Below are positions 30,501-58,915 of a stretch of 59,104 nt of DNA, piece after piece. The stretch is from Candidatus Woesearchaeota archaeon (GTDB lineage: Archaea; Nanobdellota; Nanobdellia; Woesearchaeales; SKGA01). The stretch lies in NCBI GenBank assembly GCA_021734105.1, contig JAIPJP010000003.1:1-59104 (forward strand), read 5' to 3'. The notes beneath the pieces are model-generated. The model saw only the letters and a program-made list of their open reading frames with translations. It did no database searches and had not been told where the DNA came from. Each line of letters begins with the position of its first letter. The stretch's first letter is position 1. The translations under genes were made by a program, and so were the position numbers.

Positions 30501-30667
30501 CAGACCTTAAACCTGATTGGAACTTATATCTACAAAAAAACCAAGGAAGACTACGAAATCTTCTTTATTCACTAGTAGGCGATGCAATAGAAGGAGTATT
30601 TGAAGAAAACCACAAAACAAGTTCTATTGATAGTATGGTTAAACAATTACAAAAACGAGTTTTCTAA
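27587..30667 (+). CDS. Family B DNA polymerase-like protein with intact 3'-5' exonuclease motifs but degenerate polymerase motifs
   Basis: Exo I is YLDIEIP, Exo II is AYNGRFDFIKL, the inter-exo segment is KKLDLVAKVMLG, and Exo III is YVIDDVQ. The motif A region reads IAEPGLYNNVHLAFLRYGHA (no DxxSLYPS). The motif C region reads YMYGDKTSF instead of YGDTDS. Confidence 0.65.
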   Translation: MLERLLTDIRADIQKDRAVLYFRDTGQVHAPLDKHIFVSRDLQPETFKRVQQVLATNPCFADVKVNTFPRSKNKNPFNIIQVTGPPSLGKQLREEFGKTIFSTKNYTQTARARFGNESTIVTMPKSIAETITLAKTHNQQVRLLEQKIRMQLPDKKKGQQTRIINSLHQASQEQNVLDKNSQEYKLTKHLSTDILQDFEKIQQLRTTLAQQEHISLQRQKNQTLEVILNDATQLKPKQQLDYNNCLNQSWAYLDIEIPLFRKEKPEISWVEIHYETDGQTYKEELHTLSNLGVDIFKGNDIIKYNSEADLVLGVRDALRTQHTYFLVAYNGRFDFIKLREAEELNNHDENFTPDEEGYSEPVHEASTRFFERIGIKSRAIIDLLRFAQVQYHFLPNKKLDLVAKVMLGQDAFSKSITYDEMEELEQIAQRYKKIKNKKNIEHALALTGKTIKDTLEESQAAARKIASYVIDDVQIMPQIKRSHAFDNYLKRVTFFANEFKIPFEHLAYSERALLKVNERFFLQRTKTEKDMVFFSQKDARKKYADAKQYFRTILNEKRNFIAEPGLYNNVHLAFLRYGHALQNIITRTIPEANIVFSEKARSKEDSYLLSRYGNVFADWMIADYAEIYKLCKVSLREEEKIEKKYPSFGTWYNQQFWKLWNKSSTIKEKIKKGYIEPKDVIKELHPEIALVAKQESQTTTPQGQMSLFPDQEQPKPLDETNIVQTIAQMINTKQKLNRRKYRFKQEYKATYEEVNGAIGATISMAQDAAKRFGMEIIHQEGPYFYMYGDKTSFEETYPYPVIKTFDNVLITHNATKTKQNMQRSNQRIYYNIFGTFKNMKVVNHPTHYLNVFEMEQFKTFYNHITAKEYKEAIKSIITSYEQLKKQTVPTEKLVLFSKSSERYSALEQGERIYFTTTLPKKTTRDCVGVPIQYYNETEKKFVDLAFDKKYGRPYTLELISQKEKPIYIMQFSDLKPDWNLYLQKNQGRLRNLLYSLVGDAIEGVFEENHKTSSIDSMVKQLQKRVF

Positions 30668-43886: not shown

Positions 43887-44609
43887 TTACTTTTTTGCAG
43901 CTTCCCAGAGAAGTGCGAAATATTTTTTGTAGCTCTGCGCGACTTGTTTATTTTTTACAACGATGCAGACTAGAGGTTTTTCCCAAAGCGTAATCATTAT
44001 CTCATCACCACAGACCCAAGTTGAAACTTGCGAATCAAAAGACTCAGGCAGAAATCTTGCTTGGGTTAATTTCATTTTATTTAAGAATTTAATTCGATCA
44101 GTCGCATCATGATTGTAAATATGGAGCATCTTTACACCTTGCTGTATTCTATCTTTGTGAAAATGAGGAATTTTTGTTCTTACCAGTTCAGGAACTGTAT
44201 TAGGAATACCATAGACTCGAATATCATCGTTGTACTTTAGAAAGCCACGCATGGCATTAAACAAACCTTGGAGACCTTCAGCCACGTAAGACTCGCTCGT
44301 ATCTTCTACTAATCGTCTTGAAAGTTCTAATTGCGGAAGAATGGCAGTAAGTTGATTTTCTTTTGCCTTTAGAATATTCATCAAAGCGCTTGGCTCAACA
44401 GCTTCATAGTAAGAAACTTTTTCTTTTTGCATATACGTTGCAAGGCCACGAGCAACAAGTTTTTTAAGAGCATCATAAATGTTTGCACGGTGAAGTTTAG
44501 TTGTATCTGCTACTTTTGTAACCGTTGAAACACCGTCGTGAAGGAGTGCTAAGTAGATTTTTGCTTCGCTGCGACTCAGACCAATATCGACCAAAATATC
44601 TTCGTTCAT
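43887..44609 (-). CDS. TrmB-family transcriptional regulator
   Basis: The N-terminal LGLSRSEAKIYLALLHDGVSTVTKVADTTKLHRANIYDALKKLVARGL is the TrmB wHTH. A C-terminal effector-like domain follows. Confidence 0.8.
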   Translation of the reverse strand: MNEDILVDIGLSRSEAKIYLALLHDGVSTVTKVADTTKLHRANIYDALKKLVARGLATYMQKEKVSYYEAVEPSALMNILKAKENQLTAILPQLELSRRLVEDTSESYVAEGLQGLFNAMRGFLKYNDDIRVYGIPNTVPELVRTKIPHFHKDRIQQGVKMLHIYNHDATDRIKFLNKMKLTQARFLPESFDSQVSTWVCGDEIMITLWEKPLVCIVVKNKQVAQSYKKYFALLWEAAKK

Positions 44610-44640
44610 TTATAAATAACCCTGTTTAAACTATATAATT

Positions 44641-44665
44641 CAGCAAAGATATATAAATATTGCTG
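44641..44665. promoter_or_regulatory. Inverted repeat CAGCAA-N13-TTGCTG bracketing a TATA-like ATATATAAATA in the TrmB/LDH-like divergent intergenic region
   Basis: The sequence is cagcaaagatatataaatattgctg. It lies about 40 nt upstream of the ATG at 44704. Confidence 0.4.
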
Positions 44666-44703
44666 CCACCCTCTACTGTAAAGTAGTACACGGGGAAGAA
44701 CGT

Positions 44704-47034
44704 ATGACAGCTGTATTTGATGCAAACCAACTAATGGCCAGACAACAACGACAACAAGTTGAAGCAGCACTACGCGGTTGGGATCATCTCAATCCAAAAA
44801 AATATAATATTCTTTTTATTGGTGATGGTGGCGTTACTCAAAACGCCATAAATCTTATTGCAAATAATGCCAATAAATTCATATTTGATATCGACCATAT
44901 TTATATCGTCGGAAGAGTTCAAGAAGGAAGTGTACAGAAACGAGAAAAAGCAATTAGAGATGGCAAGATACATACAAGGATAGATAACAATGAAATTAAG
45001 ATCAAACCAAGAAGTTTTGAATATTTAGAAGAACTACTTCAAGGCAATAAAACTGATTTAGTCTTTTTTACACTAGATAAAAATCCATCTAATGAGTATG
45101 ATAGAAGCAAGTTATCCGCAGAAAATATTAGTTTAGTAGAAAAACTCAAAGGTAAAGTCAAAGCAGATTTTACAGGAATCATCAATTTTGTTTCCAATCT
45201 GCCAGAAGTCTTAGCAGCTTATGCAACACAAATTCTAGATATTGACCCAAGACAAATAACTGCAAATGTTCCACTTGATCTTCTTCGAGCAGAATCAATA
45301 ATCTATAATGAAATAAGAGAAGAAATTTCTGGATTTACAGGATTTGAAATAGTTATGGCAGGATTTCATGATCAAATAATACCCTTTTTAGAACACTCCA
45401 AAATTTGGACTGGCTACACCATAAACAAAAACACAACAGAAAGAAATTTTAAAACATTTAACGAATACATTGCAAGAGATCCTCGATTTGAAGGAGCTGT
45501 TAGAGAACAAGTAAGTAAATATGCAAAAGAAGACTTTGAATTATTAGAAGCGTACTTAAAAGCAAAAGGGTTTGAATGGCAACAAGGTGCAACCATTGAA
45601 ACAACAGGTGCAGGAATTTTTAGATTTACTCAAACAGTAATTAATGGAGAAAAAACAATTACAGGCATCCCTGAACTAGTAGGAGATAAATACTATTTCA
45701 AAAACTTACCAGTTACATTTGAAAATGGTTTTCCCCAACGAGATGAAGAAGTAATCAGAAAGCTCTCCGAAGAAGACAAACGACTTATAGATGCAACAAT
45801 TGTAGATTCCAAGCATACAACACCAAATCAAAGAAAAAATTCAATAATGCCAAAAACACTTCAAACAATCATTGAAGAAACGACTAAAGAAGTTAATAGA
45901 AAACGAAGCAAGCATGATAAAATAATAATAGCATGTCAAACCCCGCGAGCAACCGATGAAGAATTAGCAGAGAAGTTTGGTAAGCGAAAAAAGCTCAACA
46001 TAAAAGAAGTTGATGAAGCAACCATAAAACATCTTCAAAATAAAAACATGAAAAAAGTTCTTGAGGAAGGTTTATACACCACATTTGCTCTGAAAAAATC
46101 AAACAATAAAACAGGATTTACTTATTACGAATTCGCAGGTTCAATTGAACCCTTCAATTCCAAGCCATATCAAGTGAGAAACAAGAATCTTTCTTACGAA
46201 GAAGAAAAAGAATTCCTCAGAAAATCACCAATTACAAAAATTAACCATTACAAAGAACATATTTATGCAACTATCGCAACTCAAGGAAAAAACAATCTTT
46301 TTTGCACACTAGGACTGGTTGAATTTGAAAAAAACAATGGTTTAGAAGGACAAATTATCTGGCAATGTGAAAAGCCAATGGACTCAATTATAGAAGAATT
46401 TATCATTCAAAAAAATCAAACTGTTGCAATAGTCTCAACACCCGATGGCCAGTTTCTTGAACGAATAGATCAAAAAGGAAAAATAAGAGAAACCACGAGT
46501 TTGCCTGAACAAATATATGGATTTCAAAAATATAAAGAAGGATTATTGCTTATTGGAGAGGAGAATGTTTATCAATACACGAATAAATGGAAAAAAATTG
46601 CTCCAAATAACAAAGGACGGGAGTATGAACTGCTTAGTGATAGAAATATTCTTTTAACGATGTCTGAAAACAGGGCCAACATTATTGATTTGGAAAAAGG
46701 TTTGATAACTTCTTATCCAACTACAAATTATCTTGGAACTATTGCATCTGAGAAAAAATATTTGCAATTAGCAACATCAAACGAAGAAGGCATAGTTATC
46801 CAAGAATTTAGAAGCAAAGAGGAAGCAGTCTCTAAAGAAAGTAAGGAACGATTTATCAGAGAAAGCCAGTTAGAAGATCCTTGGAAAATATATGCACCAA
46901 GAAAAAATGTTCTTATAACATTTCATCAAGATAATATCTTTGCAACAAGCCATAACGATTTAGGACAATTAAAAACAGTGAATTTAGTTTCAGGAGCACA
47001 GTTCTTAGATTTTGGAGGGTTTTTTGAAAAATGA
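44704..47034 (+). CDS. LDH/MDH-like 2-hydroxyacid dehydrogenase-fold domain fused to a beta-rich (propeller-like?) C-terminal domain of about 400 aa
   Basis: The N-terminal half follows the LDH order: ILFIGDGGVTQNA, DLVFFTLDKNPSNEYDRSKL, FVSNLPEVL, PLDLLRAE, MAGFHDQIIPF. The C-terminal half consists of repeated short beta-strand-like segments. Confidence 0.55.
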   Translation: MTAVFDANQLMARQQRQQVEAALRGWDHLNPKKYNILFIGDGGVTQNAINLIANNANKFIFDIDHIYIVGRVQEGSVQKREKAIRDGKIHTRIDNNEIKIKPRSFEYLEELLQGNKTDLVFFTLDKNPSNEYDRSKLSAENISLVEKLKGKVKADFTGIINFVSNLPEVLAAYATQILDIDPRQITANVPLDLLRAESIIYNEIREEISGFTGFEIVMAGFHDQIIPFLEHSKIWTGYTINKNTTERNFKTFNEYIARDPRFEGAVREQVSKYAKEDFELLEAYLKAKGFEWQQGATIETTGAGIFRFTQTVINGEKTITGIPELVGDKYYFKNLPVTFENGFPQRDEEVIRKLSEEDKRLIDATIVDSKHTTPNQRKNSIMPKTLQTIIEETTKEVNRKRSKHDKIIIACQTPRATDEELAEKFGKRKKLNIKEVDEATIKHLQNKNMKKVLEEGLYTTFALKKSNNKTGFTYYEFAGSIEPFNSKPYQVRNKNLSYEEEKEFLRKSPITKINHYKEHIYATIATQGKNNLFCTLGLVEFEKNNGLEGQIIWQCEKPMDSIIEEFIIQKNQTVAIVSTPDGQFLERIDQKGKIRETTSLPEQIYGFQKYKEGLLLIGEENVYQYTNKWKKIAPNNKGREYELLSDRNILLTMSENRANIIDLEKGLITSYPTTNYLGTIASEKKYLQLATSNEEGIVIQEFRSKEEAVSKESKERFIRESQLEDPWKIYAPRKNVLITFHQDNIFATSHNDLGQLKTVNLVSGAQFLDFGGFFEK

Positions 47035-47852
47035 ATTATTTAGAGTTTATTACAAAAACAGAATTTCAAAACAAACGATCTGAACAACAAGATAGAACTT
47101 ATTATGACCTAGAACAAGGAATAATTTTAGTTGCAGACGGACTTGGTGGAGAAAAACATCTCCGAGGAGATTATGCAAGCCAATTAGCTGTTGAAGAGAT
47201 GAGAAAACATATCGAATCAAATAATTATATGATTAAAGAGAAAATTATTTCAGAAGGCGAAATTACCTATTGGTTCAAAGTAAGTTTAGAAAAAACAAAT
47301 GAACTTATCGCGGAGCTTTCCCATAAAACTGAACAGTTCAAAAATACAGGAACTACACTTGAGGCACTGCATATCTACAAGAACCGATTATATTATGCAC
47401 ACATAGGCGATAGTGCGACATTTATCATCAGACCAAATGAAAAAAATTATGTAAACTGGTCTATGCATGGTTCAATTCAAAAACTAGCACAAGAACATAA
47501 TAGTAATAAAGAAAACACAACAGGATTTGTTACAAGTTACTTAGGCAGAGACAGCAAACTATCCGAAAACAAATTCGAATTTAACATATATAAACTTCAA
47601 CCTGGAGATATCATATTTTCTTGTACTGATGGAGTTACTAACCCATTAATAACAGATGATATTCTTGACATTTTTACTAATAATAGAATAGTTGACGTTA
47701 GTAAAAAGATTATCGAACGAGTTAATAATCCTGTAGGAAGACTTATTGAACTTCAAAAAAAAGGAAAAAAACATACACTCCAACAATACTTAGGAGATAA
47801 TGCTTCTTTCGTAATATATCAAGTAGGTAATACATATGACAAAAGAAAATAA
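47031..47852 (+). CDS. PP2C-family Ser/Thr phosphatase
   Basis: Motifs seen are VADGLGGE, AHIGDSATF, SCTDGVTN and LGDNASFVIY. It has an ATGA overlap with the upstream gene. Confidence 0.85.
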   Translation: MNYLEFITKTEFQNKRSEQQDRTYYDLEQGIILVADGLGGEKHLRGDYASQLAVEEMRKHIESNNYMIKEKIISEGEITYWFKVSLEKTNELIAELSHKTEQFKNTGTTLEALHIYKNRLYYAHIGDSATFIIRPNEKNYVNWSMHGSIQKLAQEHNSNKENTTGFVTSYLGRDSKLSENKFEFNIYKLQPGDIIFSCTDGVTNPLITDDILDIFTNNRIVDVSKKIIERVNNPVGRLIELQKKGKKHTLQQYLGDNASFVIYQVGNTYDKRK

Positions 47853-49293
47853 TAGCTCGACAAACAAAAAAAAATATATAGATAAAGTACTTCTTAAAAA
47901 AGAAAAAACACTAATAGATGCTCTTGAGAATTCAAAATTATATGAACTAGAGTACGACAGACAAACAGGCGTAGAAAGAGACACAAAAAAAACAAGAATA
48001 ACATTTAATGCAAGAGATACAAAAGGAAATTCTGTGTTCATAAAAATTCCTTTTCCTACTGAGCCGGAAACAAACAAACAGCAAATAACAAGAGTTGTTC
48101 AGCTTAGAAAGGCTCTAACCGAAGTTAATCCTCTAGCAAATGAAATTTTGTTTAGAATTGTTCGCGATGAGCCTCTTTTCTTAAATGGTCTTTATGGAAT
48201 TGTAACAGAACGAGGTCATCATAATCTACAAGATTACTTTCAACATACAAGCAATCAGCAAGAACGTGCAAATACAACATTTCATGCAATTCAACAATCA
48301 ACAAGAGGAATGCAATTACTCCATCAAAATAAATCAATAGTGTGTGATTTTAAGCCAACTAATTTGGTTTTTTTCTCAGATGACGAGTGGATGATAGTCG
48401 ATCCAGAGAGTTTTAAACCATTAGGAAGTAAACGATTTGATCCAAAACTTCGTGTTGAAGGTAGCCACTCATCAAGTGGAAGAACAAAAGACTATGCAGA
48501 CTGGCAATTAGAAGACAAACTTCATGACCCTCTATCCATACTTACAGACTGGTATGCGGTAGGAACAACACTTTTCGAAGCATACTACGAAACAACACCT
48601 AATGTGATTTTCCAAGAAAAAGAAATTGCCGATAAAAATAAACAAGTAGAATGCCTTCTTGGAATGATTAACCAAATTCCTAATGAAGTTCATCGTCATT
48701 TCATGCAAAGAACAATGGGATACGTTCTTGAAGGAGAACTCTTGCCTGAAAGAAAAACATACACTGATTTCAGATTCAGAACAACTGAAGAGACAAGAGG
48801 GTTCCTTGAAAAAGGAGAAGACTCACTTCTTGAACAAAAACTAAGTCATAAAGATTATCAAGCATTTCTAAAAAGCGTTCAAGATTTCAAGGACTTAAAA
48901 GAAAGAGTGACTCAAAAATCAAGCGGGCTTGAAGGATCGCTAACGATAGAAAATGCTGAAGCTGTTCGATCAACATACAAGAATGTTTATTCTTGGTATG
49001 CAAACGAGCATGTTAGTCCTCTACAACAAAGTAAAGAACATTTAAAAGAAGTTGAAGATATCAAAGAGCAAATTGTCTTTAGCGAGTTTGAAAAGATGAG
49101 AGCTTACCTACAAAAAAATAAAGATTTAGAAAATAAGAAAATTGCTAAGCCAATGTGGGAAATCTTTTCAAAAGCAATGATACTTGGCTTAAATAAAGAA
49201 GAAAAAATGTATTCTCTTCAGGACATTGAAAAGTTAGATGATAAATATATTTTAGAAACAAGACAACTCATCAATAAAATTAAACAATTATAG
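47836..49293 (+). CDS. Atypical Hanks-type (eukaryotic-like) protein kinase with helical C-terminal extension
   Basis: The VAIK-like Lys is in SVFIKIP. The catalytic loop is VCDFKPTNL, followed by IVDPES in the DFG position and a DWYAVGTTLFE subdomain IX-like segment. It overlaps the PP2C gene by 17 nt. Confidence 0.65.
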   Translation: MTKENNSSTNKKKYIDKVLLKKEKTLIDALENSKLYELEYDRQTGVERDTKKTRITFNARDTKGNSVFIKIPFPTEPETNKQQITRVVQLRKALTEVNPLANEILFRIVRDEPLFLNGLYGIVTERGHHNLQDYFQHTSNQQERANTTFHAIQQSTRGMQLLHQNKSIVCDFKPTNLVFFSDDEWMIVDPESFKPLGSKRFDPKLRVEGSHSSSGRTKDYADWQLEDKLHDPLSILTDWYAVGTTLFEAYYETTPNVIFQEKEIADKNKQVECLLGMINQIPNEVHRHFMQRTMGYVLEGELLPERKTYTDFRFRTTEETRGFLEKGEDSLLEQKLSHKDYQAFLKSVQDFKDLKERVTQKSSGLEGSLTIENAEAVRSTYKNVYSWYANEHVSPLQQSKEHLKEVEDIKEQIVFSEFEKMRAYLQKNKDLENKKIAKPMWEIFSKAMILGLNKEEKMYSLQDIEKLDDKYILETRQLINKIKQL

Positions 49294-49302
49294 TAAAGAA
49301 AA

Positions 49303-51201
49303 ATGCCGCAAGACCTAGGAGAATTAGTAAGGCAAGAAGCCAATAGACGACTTAAAATACACGAGCAATGGGAGCGACGGCGCGACAGGCAAAAAGCTTG
49401 GGAGAAAAACAGACAAAAATTCTTTGGCAGCGCTAAGTTCTTAGGAACAACAGCACTCCTCTTTGGTGGTTTAATGATAGGCAATAAGTTAGTTAATACT
49501 GTTCCTCCTCGAGAATTTAAACATAAAATAAAAAAATACGAAAATAAAATCATTGAGTTAGAAAAAGATAGCGCCTCTTATGTGCTAAGCACTCAAAAAC
49601 TTCAAGAAGAGAATGCTACTTTTGAAGAAACTAATAAAGAACTTCAAAATCAAATAATTGTTGAAAAAAATAAAATTCGCACACATAATTTTTCAGGAAA
49701 AGGAATACCGCACACAACTGTTCAAATTTATAAAAATGGAAAAGCTAAAACCGGAATAATAAATAATAGTGGAAAAATTAATATTACTTGGGAAGATAAA
49801 AATAAAACATTTCTCGCAGACAGCATCATCGCATTTCTTGATGGATACAAACGAGCAAAAGCAACAAATGTCTCAATAGGAGAAAAAGTTAGTTATAATT
49901 TACAACTAAAAAAAATTCCCGAATCTCGAAAAGAAATTCCAATAACGCCTCAAGCCAAATACCCCTTAGTTCTTAATGGAAAAAAAACAAAAGGTGCAAA
50001 TATTACGGCTTGGCATAATAAAAAGGAATTAAAACCAAAAGACTATGGAACTACCTATACCTTTTCATGGACTGGCAATTCTAAATCTATAGTTATAGAT
50101 AGCATAATAGGAGCATTAGAAGGATATAAACGAATGAAAATAATCGACTTGCAAGTAAATGAACAGACTACTCAGAACTTCATTTTAGAAAAAATTTCTT
50201 CAGAAAAAGAAAATAAAATAATTCAAACAAAACCCCGACTAGAACAAGAAATAAACATGCCAATAGAAAGCGGCGATAAAAAAAGAACACGGAAATTAAC
50301 AGCCGCTCCCTTAAAAGAAAGAGGAAATAAGTTAATTCTTGAATCAGGCGTGTATGAACAAATTCAGTCAATTAATATCCCTTCAGGAAAAACACTTATC
50401 ATTGAGAAAGGAGTCATTATTCAAAAGTCGCCAGGATTTGGAATTAACGCCACTGGAGGATCACTTCATGTTAAAGGCACACAAGAAAACCCTGTAGGTA
50501 TTATTGGCGGAGAAGGAATCGAACTTATTAATTCAGAAAAAAATAAAGTTAGCTACTTAGTTCTTTCAGATATTATAGATTACGATACCGACGATGGAGG
50601 AGCATTTACATTACGAAACACAGAAATTTACTTTGATAACCTTACTGTTAATAATGCGCAAACAGCGGGTAGTGGTGGAAGTATTGCAGCATATCGATCT
50701 GACGTTGAACTTACTACCAGTAAATTAGTTAGAGGAAAGGCAGGGTTTTATGGAGGAAACCTTTACATCTACGATTCGCCATACATCATAACAAATTCTA
50801 CAATCACCAAAGGTTCGGCAAAAAAAGGAGGAAATATTTACGTTGAAAGTACTAAAATAAGAGATATAAAAGAAGGTAAAAAAGCATATGCAGAAAAACC
50901 ATATATAGTCATTACTACTAGTGAAGTTACTCAAGGTGTCGCTACAACAAAAGGAGGAGGTATTTGTTTGATAGATATTGGGACAAAAATAACTAATACT
51001 GAAATAAGTCATTGTCAAGCGCAATACGGTGCAGGAGTTTATGGAGAAAAGGGCGCTTATGATTTTAGAACTAGTAACATCCATAACAATATCGCAACAG
51101 TTTCTGGAGGGGGAGGCTATTTTGTTAAAATTGGCCCTTCGTTAGACTCCTTTAGACAACCATTCTCCAATAACAAACCAAATAATTTTATAGAAAAATG
51201 A
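49303..51201 (+). CDS. Membrane-anchored surface protein 1: cytoplasmic tail, TM, coiled coil, two PEGA-like domains, Pmp-type right-handed beta-helix
   Basis: TM segment LGTTALLFGGLMIG. Two repeats end in LDGYKR and LEGYKR. GG[AGNS][FILY] repeats are spaced about 25-30 aa apart (GGAF, GGSI, GGNLY, GGNIY, GGGIC, GAGVY, GGGGYF). Confidence 0.7.
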   Translation: MPQDLGELVRQEANRRLKIHEQWERRRDRQKAWEKNRQKFFGSAKFLGTTALLFGGLMIGNKLVNTVPPREFKHKIKKYENKIIELEKDSASYVLSTQKLQEENATFEETNKELQNQIIVEKNKIRTHNFSGKGIPHTTVQIYKNGKAKTGIINNSGKINITWEDKNKTFLADSIIAFLDGYKRAKATNVSIGEKVSYNLQLKKIPESRKEIPITPQAKYPLVLNGKKTKGANITAWHNKKELKPKDYGTTYTFSWTGNSKSIVIDSIIGALEGYKRMKIIDLQVNEQTTQNFILEKISSEKENKIIQTKPRLEQEINMPIESGDKKRTRKLTAAPLKERGNKLILESGVYEQIQSINIPSGKTLIIEKGVIIQKSPGFGINATGGSLHVKGTQENPVGIIGGEGIELINSEKNKVSYLVLSDIIDYDTDDGGAFTLRNTEIYFDNLTVNNAQTAGSGGSIAAYRSDVELTTSKLVRGKAGFYGGNLYIYDSPYIITNSTITKGSAKKGGNIYVESTKIRDIKEGKKAYAEKPYIVITTSEVTQGVATTKGGGICLIDIGTKITNTEISHCQAQYGAGVYGEKGAYDFRTSNIHNNIATVSGGGGYFVKIGPSLDSFRQPFSNNKPNNFIEK

Positions 51202-51296
51202 AACTCACACATATAATCAAAACAAGAGTAGTTATCACTTTAGCAAACATGTTAACAACACGATGCGCATCAAACAAAAAAATAAAAAATGATTAA
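51198..51296 (+). pseudogene. Remnant of a lipoprotein signal-peptide exon (32 codons)
   Basis: It encodes MKLTHIIKTRVVITLANMLTTRCASNKKIKND. It shares a perfect 25-nt block (51262-51286) with the lipobox region of the gene at 51625 (51683-51707). It has an ATGA overlap with the preceding gene. Confidence 0.5.
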
Positions 51297-51621
51297 AATG
51301 ATACAAGCAAACTATAACCCTAATAACAATAAATTATCACCTTGGGAAAAAGAAGAACGAAATAAAATTAACAAATTTGTTGGAAAGTATCTTCTTTGGG
51401 GAGGAGTAGTAATTGCAAGCTATATGGGTGTAAAAGCAGTTAGTACTAGATTGCCAACCGAAGAAAATAAATTTGAATTTGCAAAATATGATAAACGAAT
51501 TAATCAACTTGAAACGGAAGTAAACAAATTAGAAAAAACATACAGTTTAGAACAGAATAAAAATACTAACCTTCGTAGACAAAAAAATAATTTAGAAAAA
51601 GAATTACGAAAAGTACAATAA
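51289..51621 (+). CDS. Small TM + coiled-coil protein (partner 1)
   Basis: TM segment YLLWGGVVIASYMGV, then heptad-like sequence ending NNLEKELRKVQ. It is a paralog of 54625..54900. Confidence 0.6.
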   Translation: MIKMIQANYNPNNNKLSPWEKEERNKINKFVGKYLLWGGVVIASYMGVKAVSTRLPTEENKFEFAKYDKRINQLETEVNKLEKTYSLEQNKNTNLRRQKNNLEKELRKVQ

Positions 51622-51624
51622 AAA

Positions 51625-52425
51625 ATGAAAGCAACTACATTAGTAAGTATTATCGCAGGAGCAAGTTTGCTTCTGAGCACAGGATGCGCATCAAACAAAA
51701 AAATAAATAGTAGGGATTTTCAAGCAGTTTCAGAAGATATTAACCTTAAAATAGAACAATATATGCATTGGGGTGTTGGCGTAGGTATCGAGAATATTGG
51801 ACAAACGGTTATTGATGTTCCTGACCAGCCATACAGCAACGAAGAAAATGAAGATATTGTAGTAGACATTCCAAATCTTAATTTTCAACTAAATTACAGA
51901 TGGTTTCACGTAGGAGTGGGCTTGCCACTTCAATTCGAAGATAGAAGCTTGCGTGCGTGGGGAACTTATACGCTAGACTTACCTGAAGAAGATAACGTAA
52001 AATTTAATGGATTAACAGAGCTTGTATGGAACTCAGAAGCAACGCCTGCATATGAAGCAGGACTCACATTTTATCTTAACAAACAGGCACGAATGGGATT
52101 TATTTTAGGTTTAGGAAAACAAGACTATACAGCAATTTTGAAAGCAGATTTTTCGGACTGCGAGAACACTACATATGGTTCCATTAAAAATTATACTTCT
52201 GCAAAAGAAGAAATGCGTGTTGATTATACGGGCTGGTCGCCACAATTCGGTATAGCATTGAGAACAAAAAATGATGGTCGACTAACAATTAATCTTATTG
52301 GAAGAATACAAGACATTAATACACATGGCAGCATAGAAGAATATAATTTGCCAGAAAAAAAATTTATCAAAGGTGCTGAAATTAATTTTATTATTCCTCT
52401 CACAACAAAGAAAACCATGCAATAA
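51625..52425 (+). CDS. Lipoprotein, beta-rich
   Basis: Lipobox LLLSTGC. Alternating beta-strand-like pattern throughout. Confidence 0.65.
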   Translation: MKATTLVSIIAGASLLLSTGCASNKKINSRDFQAVSEDINLKIEQYMHWGVGVGIENIGQTVIDVPDQPYSNEENEDIVVDIPNLNFQLNYRWFHVGVGLPLQFEDRSLRAWGTYTLDLPEEDNVKFNGLTELVWNSEATPAYEAGLTFYLNKQARMGFILGLGKQDYTAILKADFSDCENTTYGSIKNYTSAKEEMRVDYTGWSPQFGIALRTKNDGRLTINLIGRIQDINTHGSIEEYNLPEKKFIKGAEINFIIPLTTKKTMQ

Positions 52426-52467
52426 ATATTCAACAAACTATCCAAATACTATCAATGGTGAACCACT

Positions 52468-54558
52468 ATGAAACCAGACCTTGCAGAACTTGTCAAGAAC
52501 GAAGCAACTAGACGAATTAACCTAGTTAGAGAAAGGGAAAAACAAATAGAAAAAAAACAATTAATCAATCTTGGAATAAAGAATCTAGGAATAACAACAG
52601 TACTTGCTGGAATGATTATTTTAGGAACAAGATATATTAATCAACTACCACCAAGAACACTTGAGTATAAAATAAATCGAAAAGAACAACAAATAGAACA
52701 ACTCAAAAAAGATGTTACATTTGAAGAAGGCAGAGCAAACATCGCCAAAGAAAGAAACAATAGTTATCGAAATGAAATTGCCAATCTCACTAATCAAATT
52801 GAGAAAGAAGAGGAAAGAAGAAATGTTTTTGGCAAAGTAAAGAAAAAATACGAAGTTCCAGAAAACAACACTAGAACAACACCACAAAACGATCAAACAA
52901 TAAGGCAATCAAATAATAGTTTAAAACAACAAAACGAACAAATAACAACAGAACCAGCAAAAGAAAATAAAAAAACAAACACGCCAAGGGAAACAATAAC
53001 AAATAATAAAAACGAAAAATCAACAAAACAAAAAACTACAAATACTACAACAACAAAAACAAGCTCGAAATCAACAAAAATAGCCAAAACAAAAAAACAA
53101 GAAATAAAAACACAACCAGAATCAAAAATATACAATTTATCAATCGCAGGATCAACAAGAGATAATGCAAAAATCGTTATTTGGGATGACGGAAAGATTA
53201 TTGATCAAAAAGATGCAAAGTACGGAATCTTTGATATTTCTTGGGAATCTTCAACAAACAATAGGAGAATAGACAGTGTAACAGCTCGACTTGAAGGTTA
53301 CAAACCAATGACTAAAAAAAATGTTCTTGCTAAAGAAAAAACACTCCTTCAATTCCCATTAGAAAAAATCGAAGGGGTTCAAACCAAACCAGTAGAAAGA
53401 AATACTAACAGAGTAAGAACCAATACAGCAAATAATCAAGAAACAAGTTCTCGAAACAATCAACAAACAATCGAAGAAAAAATCAACAAAGTAGACTTGC
53501 CAACTGAACGATACTCTATTTCAGGAACAGAAATAATTTCTGCAGGACATTACCGAGTAAACAAAACAATCACAGTCTCCGATCAAGGCACATTAATAAT
53601 TGAGCCAGGAACACATCTTTATTTTGCGAGAACCGCAGGAATCGACATAAGAGGATATATCCAGGCAAAGGGAACAAGCGAAGAAAAGATTCATCTTGAA
53701 CCTGAAGAAAACCTTTGGCGAGGAATTACAGTTAATGAAGCGCACATCCACGATATTAAACATTTTAGAGCGCAAGTAGCAGAAGAAAGATATGGAATAA
53801 AACAAAAAAGCGGCCAAGCACAACAACAATTTATCCATACAATGATTACTGATGCGCTTACAGCAATATATATCCAACGAGGTTACCTCGCATTAGACGA
53901 CTGTAAAATAGAAGGAAGCCGACAACAAGCAATGATTCTAAAAGAAGGAACAATACAGGTAAATAAATCGGAATTCAATCATAACGGCAATAAAGCCAAT
54001 GGAGGCGTGCTTTATGTGCAACTAGGAACTGCAAAATTTTCAAACTCAACATTTTCAAATAATAAAGCAAACAACGGGGGTGTTTTCTTTGTAGATTATG
54101 TGCACAGAACAAGTTCAGGACGTAAACTTTCCGATGAGTTTAATTTTGAGAACTGCAAGTTTAACAACAACAAGGCAAATTATGCAGGCGGAGCTATCCT
54201 CATGTTTGGCAACACAGGAGCATTATTTACAGGATGCACATTTGAAGATAATAATGCACAAATAGGCGGAGCGATGTCCATTCAATTTAACGAAGCTCGA
54301 GGAATAGGAGAAAATAAGGGTACAGGAGCAGAAGCATACATGCAACGATACCTCGCAGGAACAAAACAACCTCGAATATACACTTCACAAAATGTAATCA
54401 TAAAAAACTCTCGTTTTAACAACAACAAAGCAAGTAAAGACTTAGGCGGAGGAGCAATAAGTCACAGCAAATACGCAGGAATTAATGTTAAAGCAAATTT
54501 TAGCAATAATATTCCTCAAGATATCGCCATTATGGAAACAGGAACTATCGTGAAATAA
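52468..54558 (+). CDS. Membrane-anchored surface protein 2 (paralog of 49303..51201) with T/N/K-rich linker
   Basis: The N-terminus MKPDLAELVKNEATRR aligns with MPQDLGELVRQEANRR of protein 1. It has a TM segment, a coiled coil, one PEGA-like domain (LEGYKP), and FxNN..GGA[IVM] Pmp-type repeats. Confidence 0.7.
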   Translation: MKPDLAELVKNEATRRINLVREREKQIEKKQLINLGIKNLGITTVLAGMIILGTRYINQLPPRTLEYKINRKEQQIEQLKKDVTFEEGRANIAKERNNSYRNEIANLTNQIEKEEERRNVFGKVKKKYEVPENNTRTTPQNDQTIRQSNNSLKQQNEQITTEPAKENKKTNTPRETITNNKNEKSTKQKTTNTTTTKTSSKSTKIAKTKKQEIKTQPESKIYNLSIAGSTRDNAKIVIWDDGKIIDQKDAKYGIFDISWESSTNNRRIDSVTARLEGYKPMTKKNVLAKEKTLLQFPLEKIEGVQTKPVERNTNRVRTNTANNQETSSRNNQQTIEEKINKVDLPTERYSISGTEIISAGHYRVNKTITVSDQGTLIIEPGTHLYFARTAGIDIRGYIQAKGTSEEKIHLEPEENLWRGITVNEAHIHDIKHFRAQVAEERYGIKQKSGQAQQQFIHTMITDALTAIYIQRGYLALDDCKIEGSRQQAMILKEGTIQVNKSEFNHNGNKANGGVLYVQLGTAKFSNSTFSNNKANNGGVFFVDYVHRTSSGRKLSDEFNFENCKFNNNKANYAGGAILMFGNTGALFTGCTFEDNNAQIGGAMSIQFNEARGIGENKGTGAEAYMQRYLAGTKQPRIYTSQNVIIKNSRFNNNKASKDLGGGAISHSKYAGINVKANFSNNIPQDIAIMETGTIVK

Positions 54559-54624
54559 CTAAACAAATAATCAGCAATACATAAAAAAGTTTCAAAATAT
54601 GTAACAAATAAGAAGGGAAGTGCC

Positions 54625-54900
54625 ATGAAAGAATACAACAAAATTGTAAAAAATTATTTCACCATAGGACTTATTGGTACAGGAATATATCTTGGAGCTT
54701 TTTATACAAGCACCCGAATACTAACACCCGAGCAACAAGAAACAATACAAGCCCTAAACCAAGATATAAACTCACTCAAACAACTACAACAACAATATAA
54801 AGGCAGTTATCAATCAGCTAAAGAAAATTTTCCTGCATTGTCAAAAGAAAAAAACAAACTGGAAAAAGAATTAGAAAAAGTGACAAGAAAAGATAGATAA
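54625..54900 (+). CDS. Small TM + coiled-coil protein (partner 2)
   Basis: TM segment IGLIGTGIYLGAFY, with a coiled coil ending NKLEKELEKV. Confidence 0.6.
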   Translation: MKEYNKIVKNYFTIGLIGTGIYLGAFYTSTRILTPEQQETIQALNQDINSLKQLQQQYKGSYQSAKENFPALSKEKNKLEKELEKVTRKDR

Positions 54901-54924
54901 GCCTACTTTTATAAATAAAAAACA

Positions 54925-54970
54925 AAAGGTGCTGAAATTAATTTTATTATTCCTCTCACAACAAAGAAAA
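54925..54970 (+). pseudogene. 46-nt perfect copy of the 3' end of the lipoprotein gene (remnant of a second lipoprotein gene)
   Basis: aaaggtgctgaaattaattttattattcctctcacaacaaagaaaa is identical at 52369-52414 and 54925-54970. The remnant frame runs into a TGA that overlaps the ATG at 54978. Confidence 0.7.
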
Positions 54971-54977
54971 TTATAAA

Positions 54978-55562
54978 ATGACTGATAAAAATATTGCTGA
55001 TAAGGTCAGAGAACTACTTCAAGAGCGAGAGCAAGTATATATTCTCAGAGAGAAACAGAAGCAAAAAGAACAAGAAGCAATACAAAAAAAGAAGCTAGCT
55101 AGGAAAAAAAAGAAAGAAAGAGAAAAACAAAAATTAAACAATTATTACAATAGACAAAGAAAAAAAGAAAACTTAGCTAAACTAAGAGAAAAAGATAGAC
55201 AAGAAAGAGAAGCAAACGATAACGAAATAAACATACTTAAACAAAAAAGGAATAACATTAGAGAACGATATTCCACATCTTTGAAGAGTCAACAATATTT
55301 AAAACCAAGAAACACACGCGAGTATAATTACAAATCACACGAAAAAGCAAGAGAAAAAACTGAATGGGAAAAAAATAAACCTGTCCGATTAATTGGGGGA
55401 ATATTGGGTTTTGCAGGGCTTGCGGGAGTTATTGCTAGCTATGGTTTAGATGATAGCCACACCATAGCTCAACAAACTACGGACTCCATTAAAACTATTT
55501 CTAGTTTTGCTTTGGGCATCGGATTATATGTTAGTTTCAAATATGGGAGCTATGGAAAATAA
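54978..55562 (+). CDS. K/E/R-rich protein with C-terminal TM segments
   Basis: A highly charged region of about 130 aa is followed by LIGGILGFAGLAGVIASYGL and a second hydrophobic segment. Confidence 0.55.
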   Translation: MTDKNIADKVRELLQEREQVYILREKQKQKEQEAIQKKKLARKKKKEREKQKLNNYYNRQRKKENLAKLREKDRQEREANDNEINILKQKRNNIRERYSTSLKSQQYLKPRNTREYNYKSHEKAREKTEWEKNKPVRLIGGILGFAGLAGVIASYGLDDSHTIAQQTTDSIKTISSFALGIGLYVSFKYGSYGK

Positions 55563-55565: not shown

Positions 55566-56765
55566 CTACCACAAATATAATATCACAGGAAGAATTAGAC
55601 AACCTAAAAGCATATTTTTCTGCGCACCATATTTACTTGCAAGAATTCCCAAACTTGTTGCAGTGAGAAGAATTAATAATCCCTGAAGTTTTGAAAGTAA
55701 TATAACAATAATCACTAGAAAAATAATAACTCCCCACACAAGTTTTTGATAATTAACTTTCGGAAGAAATCTTGCTAACCTTCTTGAAAGCTTTAAACCA
55801 AGAATGGTTGCAATGCCACCCACAAGTAAAAGCACACAAACAAAAATAAGTAACTGATTTGAGGAAATACTTCCTAATAAACTTTTCACGCCAACTATTG
55901 CGCCATTTCTAGCTTTCCCTAACACCATCATCGTTACTAAAGAGAACGAAAAGTTTACCGTGTTAATTCCACCAACAAGCAAGAGATATTCAGCAGGTGT
56001 TTTTTCTTTAAGCGTTGTGCTGGCAACGAGCGCTGCCTGACTACTTCCAAAGCCTGGTAGAAAAGAAGCAAGCATACCAACAAGTGTTGCTCTTAGTGTT
56101 ACACCTTCTAAAGATTTTTGTTTAATTGGAATAATTAATTTAGATAATTTTTGCACAGGCATAATACTTGCCGTTGCTAAGCTGTATAATAGTGTACTTG
56201 TACCAAAAAGTCCTGAAAGGAGCGGTAATAAAATTTGTTTTTGAGAAACTAAAGAAAAGCAAATTAGACCAAGAAGCCCTGCAGTTAAAAAGAAAAAAGA
56301 ATTTCTAAAAATTTTTTTTGAAAGAATGATAAGAAAAATAATAATTCCTAGTAAACACTTACCAATATAAGGCGAGATAAATGCTTGCACAGGAGGCAAA
56401 ATTTTTATGCCGATAGGAATAAATAGAATAGTTAAAAGTAAAGCAGCTAAAGAACCAAGAAGGGTGTAAGTAATTGCCAAATGACCTTTACCTTGCATTA
56501 AAAGTTGATGACCAGGAAGCACACCCACGACCATCGACTCATCAGGAGCTCCTAAATAAATGGAAGGAATACTATCTAAAAAGGAATGTGTGAGCGCAAG
56601 GCTAATAATAAATAATGCAATTAAAAACGGAGAAACACCACAAAGAACACCAACACTAGAAACAACAATAGCAGTAATTAAATTTACATGAACTCCAGGA
56701 ATAAGGCCTGTGATTATCCCGGCATTCACCCCGATGATGATTGCCAGTAAAATTTCAAAGAACAT
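55566..56765 (-). CDS. Polytopic membrane protein, TctA/DUF112-like
   Basis: About 10-12 TM segments. GLIPGVHVN and LPGFGSSQAA are reminiscent of TctA-family repeats. Confidence 0.5.
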   Translation of the reverse strand: MFFEILLAIIIGVNAGIITGLIPGVHVNLITAIVVSSVGVLCGVSPFLIALFIISLALTHSFLDSIPSIYLGAPDESMVVGVLPGHQLLMQGKGHLAITYTLLGSLAALLLTILFIPIGIKILPPVQAFISPYIGKCLLGIIIFLIILSKKIFRNSFFFLTAGLLGLICFSLVSQKQILLPLLSGLFGTSTLLYSLATASIMPVQKLSKLIIPIKQKSLEGVTLRATLVGMLASFLPGFGSSQAALVASTTLKEKTPAEYLLLVGGINTVNFSFSLVTMMVLGKARNGAIVGVKSLLGSISSNQLLIFVCVLLLVGGIATILGLKLSRRLARFLPKVNYQKLVWGVIIFLVIIVILLSKLQGLLILLTATSLGILASKYGAQKNMLLGCLILPVILYLW

Positions 56766-56994: not shown

Positions 56995-58137
56995 TTATTT
57001 TGTCTGTTTGGAGGTTCTACGCTTTCTATATGCTTCAAGATCTTCTTCTAATTTTCTCTTTAAAGGATCAGGTCTTGTTGATTGTGCCAGTCTTACCCGA
57101 GAATCTTCATTAATTATTGTTTCTTTTTTATATTTAAACTCCTTATTTATTCTTAGATATACTGCTTCAACAAGACCTTCAGTAGTTGAATAATCACATT
57201 GGAGTGGGAGAAGAGAATCCAATATTCTTCCTGATACAACATCAGATAAATAAAAAACAAGAAAATTAGCAACTAATCTTTTGTTAAAACCTTTCACTTC
57301 AATAAAAAAATGATTTTGAATTAATCGAACAAATAAGTCTTCGGTTTTAATAGGCTTGTAATCCTTTGGATGAACATATTTATTATCATACCACAAATCA
57401 AAAAACTCAATAGCAAAGTGATGCCTTGCTGAAGATTCTTTTCTAAATTTTGGATTTGAAAAAACATAGTCTGCAATCGAAGGTGAAACTATTAACATAT
57501 TTAGTAGAACCAACGAAGTTTCTTTATTCAAATTAATTGAATCATCCGAATGAGTCCCATAAAACAAAGATGCTTTAGCTACATCTCTAACTATTTTTTC
57601 CTTATATTTTATGAAAGATTCAGTAAAATATTTTGTTTGATAAAGATAATTCTCTAATTTATGCTCAATAAAGTCCCTTACTATTTTTTTAAAAGATGAA
57701 TAGTTCGTTTTCAAGGAATATCTATGGCTTTTATCTTCAGGATTTATTTGGATATAATCCAAAGTACCTCTTCTTAAATAAGATTTTAAATCAATTTCTT
57801 GTACATCGCATTTTCCAAAAGTTAATGAATCCTTCAGAAGTTCTCTAGTAAATCCTTTGGATTCAAAATACGCTGAATGTATTAGTACAATTTTTCTATA
57901 CAGTGTCTTGAATCTGTTTTTGTATTTTTTGTTGAACTCAAACCAAGATATAATTTTAGGAATTAAATCTAAACTGTATATACCTATCCCTTGCTTATTG
58001 ATAAAATCAGATAAAGGGTTAGGAAGAGCATTATAGATTTTTGTTTGTTCATAATCTAAATCAACACTCGACCTCATAAGAACTAAATAAATTGCATATT
58101 TTTTTTGAAGATTGGAAATATTGGAATAATCTAACAT
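56995..58137 (-). CDS. Hypothetical protein (380 aa), very AT-rich gene
   Basis: Long ORF, K/Y/F/N-rich, with no recognised family. It is divergent from the AbrB/RHH/Zn-ribbon operon. Confidence 0.5.
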   Translation of the reverse strand: MLDYSNISNLQKKYAIYLVLMRSSVDLDYEQTKIYNALPNPLSDFINKQGIGIYSLDLIPKIISWFEFNKKYKNRFKTLYRKIVLIHSAYFESKGFTRELLKDSLTFGKCDVQEIDLKSYLRRGTLDYIQINPEDKSHRYSLKTNYSSFKKIVRDFIEHKLENYLYQTKYFTESFIKYKEKIVRDVAKASLFYGTHSDDSINLNKETSLVLLNMLIVSPSIADYVFSNPKFRKESSARHHFAIEFFDLWYDNKYVHPKDYKPIKTEDLFVRLIQNHFFIEVKGFNKRLVANFLVFYLSDVVSGRILDSLLPLQCDYSTTEGLVEAVYLRINKEFKYKKETIINEDSRVRLAQSTRPDPLKRKLEEDLEAYRKRRTSKQTK

Positions 58138-58176
58138 ATTATAATTAATACTTATATATTATTTAAAGTTTTCTAT

Positions 58177-58199
58177 TTTGGATATTTATGATATCCAAA
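58177..58199. promoter_or_regulatory. Perfect palindrome TTTGGATAT-N5-ATATCCAAA (candidate operator)
   Basis: It sits in the divergent intergenic region. An extra GGATAT half-site follows at about 58203-58208. Confidence 0.5.
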
Positions 58200-58264
58200 T
58201 CGGATATTTTAGTACTCCCTAACGTATCCTCACCCTAATATACTTCTACAGCAATAATTAAGAT

Positions 58265-58438
58265 ATGATCAAAAGACAAATTTTTACATGGGGAGGTTAC
58301 TCTTTTGGAATCACTTTGCCCAAAAATTGGGTGAAACGAAACGATGTTTCTCAAGTAGAAATTGAAGAATTTGATCAAGAATTAATCATAAGAATTGCAA
58401 AAAATGACGCAAACACAGGAGGAGCTGACAAATGCTGA
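58265..58438 (+). CDS. AbrB/SpoVT/MazE-type swapped-hairpin DNA-binding protein (57 aa; not in the ORF track)
   Basis: Hand translation gives MIKRQIFTWGGYSFGITLPKNWVKRNDVSQVEIEEFDQELIIRIAKNDANTGGADKC. The GITLPK..V pattern is typical. It overlaps the next ORF by 7 nt. Confidence 0.55.
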   Translation: MIKRQIFTWGGYSFGITLPKNWVKRNDVSQVEIEEFDQELIIRIAKNDANTGGADKC

Positions 58439-58629
58439 GAAAGACTTGCCTCCTCCAGCTTCGAGTCACTGCTGATCAAAAACAAATGATCGAAAAACTT
58501 GCCGAAATCAATGGTTATAACTCCCTCAGTGACTTCATTCGATCAAGAGCCTTACAATCTAATCTCATAGAGCTACGTCTAAACGAAATCAAGAAAATGC
58601 TCCAAAAAGAGGTCGGTAAACATGACTGA
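58432..58629 (+). CDS. Ribbon-helix-helix-like protein (MobC/CopG-like)
   Basis: LQLRVTADQKQMIEKLAEINGYNSLSDFIRSRAL fits a beta-strand followed by two helices. Confidence 0.5.
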   Translation: MLRKTCLLQLRVTADQKQMIEKLAEINGYNSLSDFIRSRALQSNLIELRLNEIKKMLQKEVGKHD

Positions 58630-58663
58630 TGGAGAAATTGTTGAAAATCGAGGTGGAAAAATA

Positions 58664-58915
58664 ATGACTAAAAAAACATTTCGGGATCACCATGCAACAC
58701 CAGTTACGTCTATACGTGCTTTTTGTCTGCATTGCATGGGGTTTTCACGTAAAGAAGTTGGAAAATGCTCCGCCCCTGAGTGCCCCTTGTTTCCTTATCG
58801 AATGGGAAAGCGACCTAAGAATAGCACCAAAATAGGGCTTACTGAGGCTTGCTTTATCGCCGACAGGGGTAACATGAACGAATTGAAAATAATTGAAAAT
58901 AGCGAAGAAAATTAG
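58664..58915 (+). CDS. Zn-ribbon protein of a type common on phage/plasmid contigs
   Basis: The sequence is FCLHCMG...GKCSAPECPLFPYRMGKRP. The ATG at 58664 follows an AGGTGGA Shine-Dalgarno site. Confidence 0.5.
   Translation: MTKKTFRDHHATPVTSIRAFCLHCMGFSRKEVGKCSAPECPLFPYRMGKRPKNSTKIGLTEACFIADRGNMNELKIIENSEEN

Follow-up and report, generated by a model that had tools for sequence, protein, structure and literature searches.

What does a tandemly repeated set of membrane-anchored beta-helix proteins build at the surface of an uncultured archaeon? The question is raised by positions 49303-55562 of a 59,104-nt stretch of contig JAIPJP010000003.1 from a Candidatus Woesearchaeota archaeon (the whole stretch is referred to below as the window), in which six open reading frames (ORFs) encode two large proteins (L1 and L2), two small ones (S1 and S2), a lipoprotein (LP) and a K/E-rich transmembrane (TM) protein (KE). 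All six were recovered on the + strand at the positions given in an initial annotation, which had been made from the sequence and had read them as a duplicated surface cassette. We see a somewhat better than even chance that they specify a lineage-specific archaeal surface assembly, in which the L proteins carry a non-enzymatic head resembling that of chlamydial polymorphic membrane proteins (Pmp), the S proteins contribute additional stalk strands and LP forms a third component with a lipid anchor. Such an assembly would most likely be adhesin-like or ligand-binding, and possibly tied to a kinase/phosphatase pair. Little is known of how uncultured archaea build surface structures and sense contact, and the cassette offers a compact and testable model, which joins a stalked beta-helix protein, a stalk-only paralogue and a lipoprotein, and is genetically tied to a kinase, a phosphatase and a TrmB-family regulator.

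Stalked beta-helix proteins and their headless homologues

L1 (49303-51201, + strand, 632 aa) is a predicted type-II membrane surface protein composed of a tail (aa 1-45), a TM segment (46-64), a stalk helix (70-123), two beta-sandwiches (126-199 and 220-286), a beta-helix (338-609) and a C-terminal F.NN.PNN...K motif, the last being common to all L members in a 5-sequence alignment. Its paralogue L2 (52468-54558, + strand, 696 aa) has a tail (aa 1-34), a TM segment (~35-56), a stalk (62-117), a low-complexity T/N/K/Q linker of ~95 residues (~120-215), one beta-sandwich (~218-303) and a beta-helix (~345-690) with FxxN...GGA rungs. S1 (51289-51621, + strand, 110 aa), a small protein also predicted to be of type II, consists of a TM segment (30-48) and a heptad stalk, and S2 (54625-54900, + strand, 91 aa) is its paralogue. 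The proposed tandem duplication was confirmed by BLASTP, in which both pairs scored far above chance: L1 and L2 are 34% identical over tail, TM segment and stalk (E 1e-13) and 24% identical over sandwich and beta-helix (E 1e-12), while S1 and S2 share 32% identity (E 1e-9). Since these identities reach only 24-34%, the duplication, genuine as it is, appears to be ancient. No further paralogues of L, S, LP or KE were detected in the window.

The modular architecture proposed for the large proteins was upheld by the domain order in an AlphaFold2 (AF2) model of L1 and by the L1/L2 alignments. The model was built from a 3-sequence alignment and reached a mean predicted local distance difference test score (pLDDT) of 70; it contains a helix at 5-42 (the tail), an unmodelled TM region and a single helix at 70-123, which forms a 54-residue stalk. 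Hydropathy analysis likewise bore out one hydrophobic segment near the N-terminus in each of L1, L2 and S1; that of S2 (residues 7-25) was not called at the scan threshold, and its position is given by the hydropathy maximum alone. All TM helices of the L and S proteins are glycine-rich with small-xxx-small spacing, as read directly from the alignments. In support of coiled coils, the stalks show a heptad pattern at the a/d positions, with a shuffle p of <=0.02 in L1, in L2 and in the L protein of the related genome L001, and of 0.06 in that of the related genome L002.

The two sandwiches of L1 were modelled with pLDDT values of roughly 72-84. In a Foldseek search against PDB, an L1 sandwich matched the transthyretin-like domain of carboxypeptidase D (5aq0_A; 85 columns, root-mean-square deviation (rmsd) 3.8, TMt 0.57, prob 1.0), other matches being the PepT1/2 ectodomains and the B. 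anthracis TIE protein. Judged from the model, these domains appear to belong to the transthyretin-like/prealbumin-like fold class, which includes PEGA and CarboxypepD_reg. The term "PEGA-like" used in the initial annotation thus holds for the fold class, but membership of the PEGA family itself was rejected: PF08308 gave no match at E <=1 with the full proteins and none at E <=10 even with seven isolated domain copies. A profile of the sandwich domain found chance-level matches only in PDB. Moreover, the L(D/E)GYK motif (LDGYK or LEGYK), with which these domains were said to end, actually lies about two-thirds of the way along the ~80-aa sandwich.

The right-handed beta-helix recognized at the C-terminus was recovered in the L1 model with pLDDT 80-94 over aa 338-609, and the protein ends ~20 residues past the last rung. 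Foldseek matches in PDB comprised NosD (7osf), endo-polygalacturonase (7e56), the pneumococcal adhesin PfbA (3zpp, 4mr0), Rhombotarget A (9cdu_C; 290 columns, rmsd 5.7), a GH87 glucanase (6k0s) and the RbmB lyase (9ozl), with prob 0.9-1.0 for NosD, the polygalacturonase, PfbA and Rhombotarget A. The modelled domain can be placed in the PF13229/NosD/pectate-lyase-like class of right-handed parallel beta-helices. Rungs of the GG[AGSNV]-hydrophobic type are ~12-15x commoner than in shuffled sequence, with seven GG[AGSNV]x rungs in L1 (0.6 expected) and five F..N..A..GG rungs in L2 (0.1 expected); the FxxN...GGA repeats described at the outset are clear in L2 and degenerate in L1.

Direct evidence of kinship with Pmp repeats from Pfam is weak and sub-threshold in L2 (Chlam_PMP PF02415, E 0.021, 15.5 bits against a cut-off of 20.6); the same model had no match in L1, and neither protein reached the threshold of PF13229. 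The Pmp-type repeat chemistry is nonetheless supported by transitive homology to Chlam_PMP/PF13229 proteins. A profile hidden Markov model of L1 and L2 matched 10,914 proteins at E <=1e-3. Among the best 150 of these, L2 aside, only three extended outside profile positions ~344-720 (the C-terminal, beta-helix-bearing part), and many were giant multi-repeat proteins. Matches sampled outside the L family carried Chlam_PMP in eight of nine cases (E 3.8e-5 to 2.6e-35) and PF13229 Beta_helix in five of nine. For L1, L2, LP and KE themselves, searches of Pfam, NCBIfam, PADLOC and PDB sequences returned nothing above threshold.

The small proteins proved to be related to the membrane-proximal part of the large ones. 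An hhalign comparison of a profile of four S proteins with the TM and stalk region of four L proteins aligned 82 columns (S 26-108 with L 39-120) at a probability of 95% and E 3e-8. With the L alignment reversed, E was 0.012, and 22 column shuffles gave E >=0.07; because these controls fall so far below the real alignment, the similarity goes beyond composition. The heptad a/d positions of L1, L2, S1 and S2 coincide along the whole stalk, under the S, the L and the S-L alignments alike. The S proteins can thus be regarded as headless homologues of the L anchor and stalk, apparently of equal stalk length and register. Because length and register are the same, S has the form to be expected if it enters a parallel coiled coil anchored in the same membrane, and a pairing of S with the L stalk, already proposed in the initial annotation, gains support from the homology and the in-phase heptads.

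The last gene of the cassette encodes KE (54978-55562, + strand, 194 aa), which consists of an L-type N-terminal motif (MTDKNIADKVRELLQERE), ~115 aa rich in K, E and R, a TM segment (136-154) and a short C-terminal segment. It has one hydrophobic segment, near the C-terminus, and, as initially described, no ectodomain. KE showed no overall BLAST similarity to L1. We searched six-frame translations of the window, L001 and L002 with the pattern [DN][LIV][AG]..V[RK]..[VLIA]..[ER] (an example of the motif peptide is MPQDLGELVRQEANRRL). It occurs solely at N-termini, namely those of L1, L2 and KE, of the two L orthologues and of the last protein in the L002 cassette, which has 222 aa. This 222-aa protein appears, from a reading of its sequence alone, to be soluble and TPR-like. 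The motif most likely acts in the cytoplasm, since it also occurs on this protein, which has no obvious TM segment.

The same observation bears on the topology of the L proteins. They lack a cleavable signal peptide, the only hydrophobic segment of L1 being an internal signal-anchor (aa 46-64), and the L1 tail is K/R-rich (13 K/R in 45 residues). Because of this long basic tail, and because the motif is shared with a protein that has no obvious TM segment, the L proteins are most likely oriented N-in/C-out, which would place the beta-helix outside the cell. The density of N-glycosylation sequons was highest in the L proteins, the effect being weak (z ~2 for both L1 and its L001 orthologue, 0.1 for L2).

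Lipoprotein, probable operon and related genomes

LP (51625-52425, + strand, 266 aa), whose gene starts 3 nt after S1, is a predicted lipobox lipoprotein: direct reading identifies a signal peptide and lipobox, MKATTLVSIIAGASLLLSTG directly before the cysteine (...LLLSTGC, with LSTGC as the box). The lipoboxes of its relatives read ..GILTTGC, ..LLLGTSC and ..LMTAGC; the -3 residue is S, T or G, not L, and only the broader PROSITE pattern fits. The box of one further relative, LPb of L001 (..LLHTSC), is a poor fit. Lipoproteins with a lipobox occur commonly in both Euryarchaeota and DPANN (PMC12462473). The relatives of LP are exclusively lipoproteins of the same cassette in related genomes (17-25% identity), and it has no match in Pfam or PDB.

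The initial annotation assigned a lipoprotein to the first cassette copy only. The lipobox of LP agrees with this reading, but the second copy retains a 55-nt lipoprotein-gene remnant. This 3' remnant (54925-54981, + strand) reads KGAEINFIIPLTTKKIIK up to a stop codon that overlaps the start of KE (ATGA), and its positions 54925-54979 are 93% identical over 55 nt to 52369-52423, i.e. the 3' end of LP. A decayed 5' fragment (51213-51296, + strand), reading ..IIKTRVVITLANMLTTRCASNKKIKND up to a stop codon, has no start codon and carries Arg in place of the lipobox Gly; 51258-51286 is 97% identical to 51679-51707 in the lipobox region of LP, and a decayed signal-peptide frame (..RVVITLANMLTTRCASNKKIKND, then a stop) lies directly before S1. 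Because near-identical LP fragments thus occur before S1 and after S2, cassette copy 2 appears formerly to have had its own lipoprotein gene, and an LP gene appears once to have followed L1 directly, as it still follows L in L001 and L005 (a third related genome). The fragments are near-identical whereas the L1/L2 and S1/S2 proteins share 24-34% identity, which points to recent turnover or gene conversion of the LP copies.

The cassette appears to form the distal part of a longer transcription unit. Upstream lies a TrmB-family regulator gene (43887-44609, - strand; Pfam TrmB E 2.4e-15), divergently oriented and kept in position and orientation in L001, L002 and L005, which makes it the candidate regulator. 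The 94 nt that separate it from the first gene of the run (window 44610-44703, promoter on the + strand; counterparts at L001 5371-5469 and L002 about 6721-6830) have a mean column identity of 77% across the three genomes, while the proteins encoded downstream reach only ~40%. This intergenic DNA contains two TATA-like boxes (ATATATAAA), a CTACT..AGTAG palindrome and GGGG before the ATG, and we regard it as a conserved promoter region and a candidate TrmB operator. In L002 the real start of the first gene is probably the aligned ATG, rather than the upstream TTG of the ORF listing.

The run opens with a gene for a 776-aa protein (44704-47034, + strand), present in synteny in all four genomes, for which Pfam, NCBIfam and PDB sequence searches gave nothing above threshold. 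Its end overlaps by 4 nt the start of a PP2C-type Ser/Thr phosphatase gene (47031-47852, + strand; PF13672 E 4.5e-16; Stp1/IreP model E 1.7e-32, under the cut-off of that model). There follows an atypical soluble protein-kinase-like protein (47836-49293, + strand; Pkinase E 1e-5, under cut-off), whose gene ends 9 nt before L1; the phosphatase and kinase-like genes do lie directly upstream of the cassette, as had been noted. The kinase-like protein has a VFIK lysine, a VCDFKPTN catalytic loop replacing HRD and a DPE replacing DFG, all kept in three orthologues, and ends in a conserved region of ~180 aa with the last residues ..WEIFSKAMILGLNKEEKMY. It is probably an active, if atypical, kinase. 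From 44704 to 55562 all genes are co-directional, with overlaps or gaps of <=87 nt. Because of this arrangement and the conserved intergenic promoter region, the genes from the 776-aa protein to KE would form one regulated operon. The close link to the kinase, PP2C and 776-aa genes, whose import was overlooked in the initial annotation, points to a role in signalling. The downstream boundary of the cassette, also conserved, is formed by a TctA-family transporter gene (55566-56765, - strand; PF01970 E 2.5e-49), the product of which is 75% identical to its L001 orthologue.

When the cassette was sought in related genomes and its copies counted, three others were found to carry it, each with a single L gene, so that the duplication is confined to the window. 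These are L001 (a 172-kb ENA scaffold, GTDB contig CAYRYB010000003; L003 is identical in sequence), L002 (GTDB contig CAZSZY010000007) and L005 (an 11-kb JGI contig). The four share the order TrmB (-), an unknown protein of 750-800 aa, PP2C, kinase, cassette and TctA (-). Within it, the window has L1, (LP remnant), S1, LP, L2, S2, (LP remnant) and KE; L001 has L, LPa, LPb, S and a TM-anchored SLT lytic transglycosylase; L002 has L, S, LP and the 222-aa protein; and L005 has a split L (83-aa and 448-aa ORFs), LP, S and an 83-aa ORF. The invariant core is therefore L, S and LP, in which S always adjoins LP and gene boundaries overlap or lie a few nt apart. The gene set is restricted to this lineage. 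A scan of genome contigs with the L1/L2 alignment found nothing, the derived patterns being overly specific; in metagenome contigs, the alignment of the kinase matched nothing beyond a 2-kb fragment (L004).

Between the window and L001, the flanking AAA, TrmB and TctA proteins are 74-80% identical, the 776-aa protein, PP2C and kinase 39-42%, and L, S and LP 23-35%; the whole cassette together with the kinase module thus appears to be fast-evolving. Rapid divergence, duplication and gene remnants would make the locus a hotspot of surface variation. Because synteny among the genomes stops beyond TctA (window 56995-58915 vs L001 16501-20517 vs L002 16470-21179), the cassette adjoins a variable region: directly past this gene the window encodes a 380-aa protein and small ORFs that resemble, by their sequence, AbrB- and RHH-type proteins, while small genes and an integrase lie there in L001, and genes for unrelated membrane proteins in L002.

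Two further observations concern individual members of the set. The protein that closes the L001 cassette (14076-14999, 307 aa) combines an N-terminal TM helix with an SLT lytic-transglycosylase domain, a peptidoglycan-cleaving fold that is found here in an archaeon; further downstream, L001 encodes a phage-type integrase (19226-20056) and a weakly OmpA-like protein (20854-22050). A homologue search with L1 in a collection of 5.8 billion proteins gave no match, not even L1 itself, while L2 and LP of the same contig are present there; the L1 gene may have been called differently in the source annotation.

Possible roles of the cassette

The closest known kind of protein is that of the archaeal adhesin-like proteins (ALPs), described from the gut methanogens Methanobrevibacter smithii and Methanosphaera stadtmanae, in which a TM helix at the N-terminus is joined to Ig-like domains and a right-handed beta-helix (PMC11532034). 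The ALPs and the L proteins have in common an N-terminal TM anchor with a basic cytoplasmic side, a right-handed beta-helix (with Chlam_PMP repeats in some ALPs), Ig-like or carboxypeptidase-regulatory-like sandwiches and the occurrence of several paralogues. They differ in domain order, since L runs from TM segment through coiled-coil stalk and sandwich(es) to a distal beta-helix, whereas the beta-helix of ALPs usually precedes the Ig-like repeats. Specific to L are the cytoplasmic N-terminal motif, the headless stalk paralogue, the lipoprotein partner and the operon with a kinase and PP2C. On sequence and model, L fits this descriptive class, a likeness of class which does not establish a sequence-level family link, and its adhesion is itself a prediction.

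The chlamydial Pmp are type V autotransporters (PMC10715098). They resemble L in surface exposure (predicted for L) and in being paralogous and fast-diverging, and their FxxN and GGA(I/L/V)-type rungs probably have a counterpart in L. In contrast, L is held by an N-terminal TM anchor in an archaeal membrane and has neither a cleavable signal peptide nor a Pmp middle domain nor a C-terminal barrel; no autotransporter or Pmp-middle Pfam model matched L at E <=1, and we rejected L1 and L2 as Pmp autotransporters on these grounds. In trimeric autotransporter adhesins and in the tetrabrachion of Staphylothermus marinus, a coiled-coil stalk projects a head, and the anchor is a C-terminal barrel or a C-terminal TM segment. 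The logic of head, stalk and anchor is the same in L, but here the anchor is N-terminal, the stalk is short (~8 heptads, ~8 nm), probably hetero-oligomeric with a separate headless subunit, and sequence similarity is absent. We did not find described in the literature a stalk accompanied by a stalk-only paralogue, an obligatory LP neighbour, a shared cytoplasmic motif or the operon link to a kinase and PP2C.

In the assembly that we favour, L1 and L2 would be type-II proteins (N-in, C-out) with a helical cytoplasmic tail of ~40 aa that bears the conserved N-terminal motif. One glycine-rich TM helix would anchor a coiled-coil stalk of ~8 heptads, and the stalk would carry one or two transthyretin-like spacers and, distally, the Pmp-repeat beta-helix as a non-enzymatic, adhesin-like binding head. 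S1 and S2, being headless, would most likely combine with the stalk of L into a hetero-oligomeric coiled coil, parallel and in register, with LP, encoded beside S, as the third, membrane-tethered component. KE, which offers only a tail and a TM segment, would probably compete for or recruit the same cytoplasmic partner by means of the shared motif. The cassette would be co-transcribed with the genes of PP2C, the atypical kinase and the 776-aa protein from the conserved promoter beside the TrmB regulator. An assembly of L, S and LP, should it form, would amount to an adhesin of head, stalk and anchor in an archaeon, with full and headless subunits as separate proteins. Docking of the kinase module by the motif, should it occur, would represent a new coupling of surface binding to archaeal Ser/Thr signalling.

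Two other readings take the cassette in a different direction. The beta-helix could be an enzyme (a polysaccharide lyase or hydrolase, or a NosD-like protein), which would turn L1 and L2 into membrane-tethered glycan degraders. The Foldseek matches to 7e56, 6k0s, 9ozl and 7osf are what one would expect on this reading, but they are matches at the level of fold, with 7-16% identity, and the nearest sequence relatives are Chlam_PMP-repeat proteins. No enzyme family with intact catalytic sites was matched in Pfam, NCBIfam or PDB sequence searches, and the 5-sequence alignment of the beta-helix contains no invariant Asp, Glu, His or Arg; its invariant residues (Gly, Ala, Asn, Ser, Thr, Tyr, Ile, Phe and Lys) are best read as structural. 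For these reasons a glycanase or lyase role is unlikely, and we regard the enzymatic reading as a whole as highly improbable. We give even less credence to a spanin-like or viral lysis/entry cassette, in which S would be an Rz-type i-spanin, LP its partner and L the viral receptor-binding protein of an integrated element. Like Rz and Rz1, S and LP are a small type-II membrane protein with a coiled-coil ectodomain and a lipoprotein encoded beside it, always as neighbours; S2 (E 4.4e-6) and S1 (E 1.3e-3) match PHROG 739 "Rz-like spanin", the L001 cassette closes with the SLT transglycosylase, and BFVD fold matches include tail fibres and tailspikes. The PHROG matches are, however, limited to the TM and coiled-coil region, where weak matches across families arise easily, and LP, at ~250 aa, has no PHROG match. 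o-Spanins are far smaller than this. The organism is archaeal, an outer membrane is not indicated, and there is neither a holin nor the logic of a lysis cassette. A scan of IMG/VR viral contigs with the L alignment gave no relative; the setting is one of conserved chromosomal synteny among housekeeping-like genes in four genomes, with no annotated virus hallmark between TrmB and TctA, and on this genomic context the spanin or lysis cassette was rejected.

The main alternative, possible though doubtful, assigns the proteins to a split receptor-kinase. L1 and L2 (and KE) would be the TM sensor or docking subunits of the soluble kinase, PP2C and the 776-aa protein, so that contact at the beta-helix is relayed via the N-terminal motif, or the kinase controls surface display; either variant is compatible with an adhesin-like L. 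The genes for the 776-aa protein, PP2C, kinase, L, S and LP form one run (gaps <=87 nt) in an order shared by four genomes, neither the kinase nor PP2C contains a TM segment or a sensor domain (ORF translations and Pfam), and the cytoplasmic motif is common to L1, L2, KE and the 222-aa L002 protein. The 776-aa protein, PP2C and kinase also diverge as fast as surface proteins (39-42% identity against 74-80% for the flanks), which fits co-evolution, but lineage-specific genes often outpace housekeeping genes anyway. Equally, operon membership by itself does not prove physical coupling, the L tails contain no conserved Ser or Thr in the alignment, and the kinase match lies under the Pfam cut-off. 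An extension of this idea, which we consider rather unlikely, sees a hitherto undescribed archaeal receptor kinase in pieces: L, the stalk-only S, the tail-only KE and the 222-aa L002 variant would share a cytoplasmic docking helix to which the 776-aa protein, PP2C and the kinase are recruited, phosphorylation inside the cell would follow from contact at the beta-helix, and surface and cytoplasmic parts would co-evolve rapidly while the set expands and decays.

Several points weigh against the surface assembly of L, S and LP. Its contacts are predicted from sequence, no ligand can be named for the head, and the fold of LP is not resolved by its AF2 model, for which a 2-sequence alignment gave a mean pLDDT of 25.7. 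The positive-inside signal is weak, the K/R counts in the 15-residue flanks of the TM segments of the L proteins being 5 vs 5, 5 vs 3, 6 vs 4 and 4 vs 3. Only four genomes carry the cassette, which makes conservation statistics thin, and in one of them, L005, the L orthologue (6732-8537) is divided into an 83-aa ORF (tail and TM segment) and a 448-aa ORF (sandwich and beta-helix), ~200 nt apart, with the stalk-coding part out of frame or lost; this may reflect gene decay or an assembly error. For now, the cassette is narrowly distributed and uncharacterised, and the function proposed for it is plausible but unproven. As for the host-attachment apparatus of a small episymbiont envisaged in the initial annotation, this found no support and is speculation: the window, which also encodes aroE, a PyrD-like protein, SOD, AhpC and UvrABC, does not indicate a reduced episymbiont state.

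Other features of the window

The archaeal origin of the window is indicated by the presence of TrmB, a class-I ProRS with a ProRS-C_1 domain and a tRNA with a canonical 37/38 intron, and by nearest genomes that are filed as archaeal in GTDB. The tRNA gene in question (8748-8846, + strand, 99 nt) was called "tRNA-Pyl (cta)" by ARAGORN. Read directly, it resembles a tRNA-Arg(UCU) gene, has ~22 nt of intron at 37/38 (CCAGC CTTCTA [CTTGCCGTTTGGCATGAAGCA] A GCTGG) and encodes the CCA; the call, as support for a Methanosarcinales or pyrrolysine lineage, was rejected as an intron artefact.

Finally, a 1026-aa ORF (27587-30667, + strand) without a Pfam match contains the sequence VAYNGRFDFIKL, similar to the motif YNxxxFDxxY (Exo II) of DNA polymerases of family B, and may encode a highly divergent polymerase or exonuclease.

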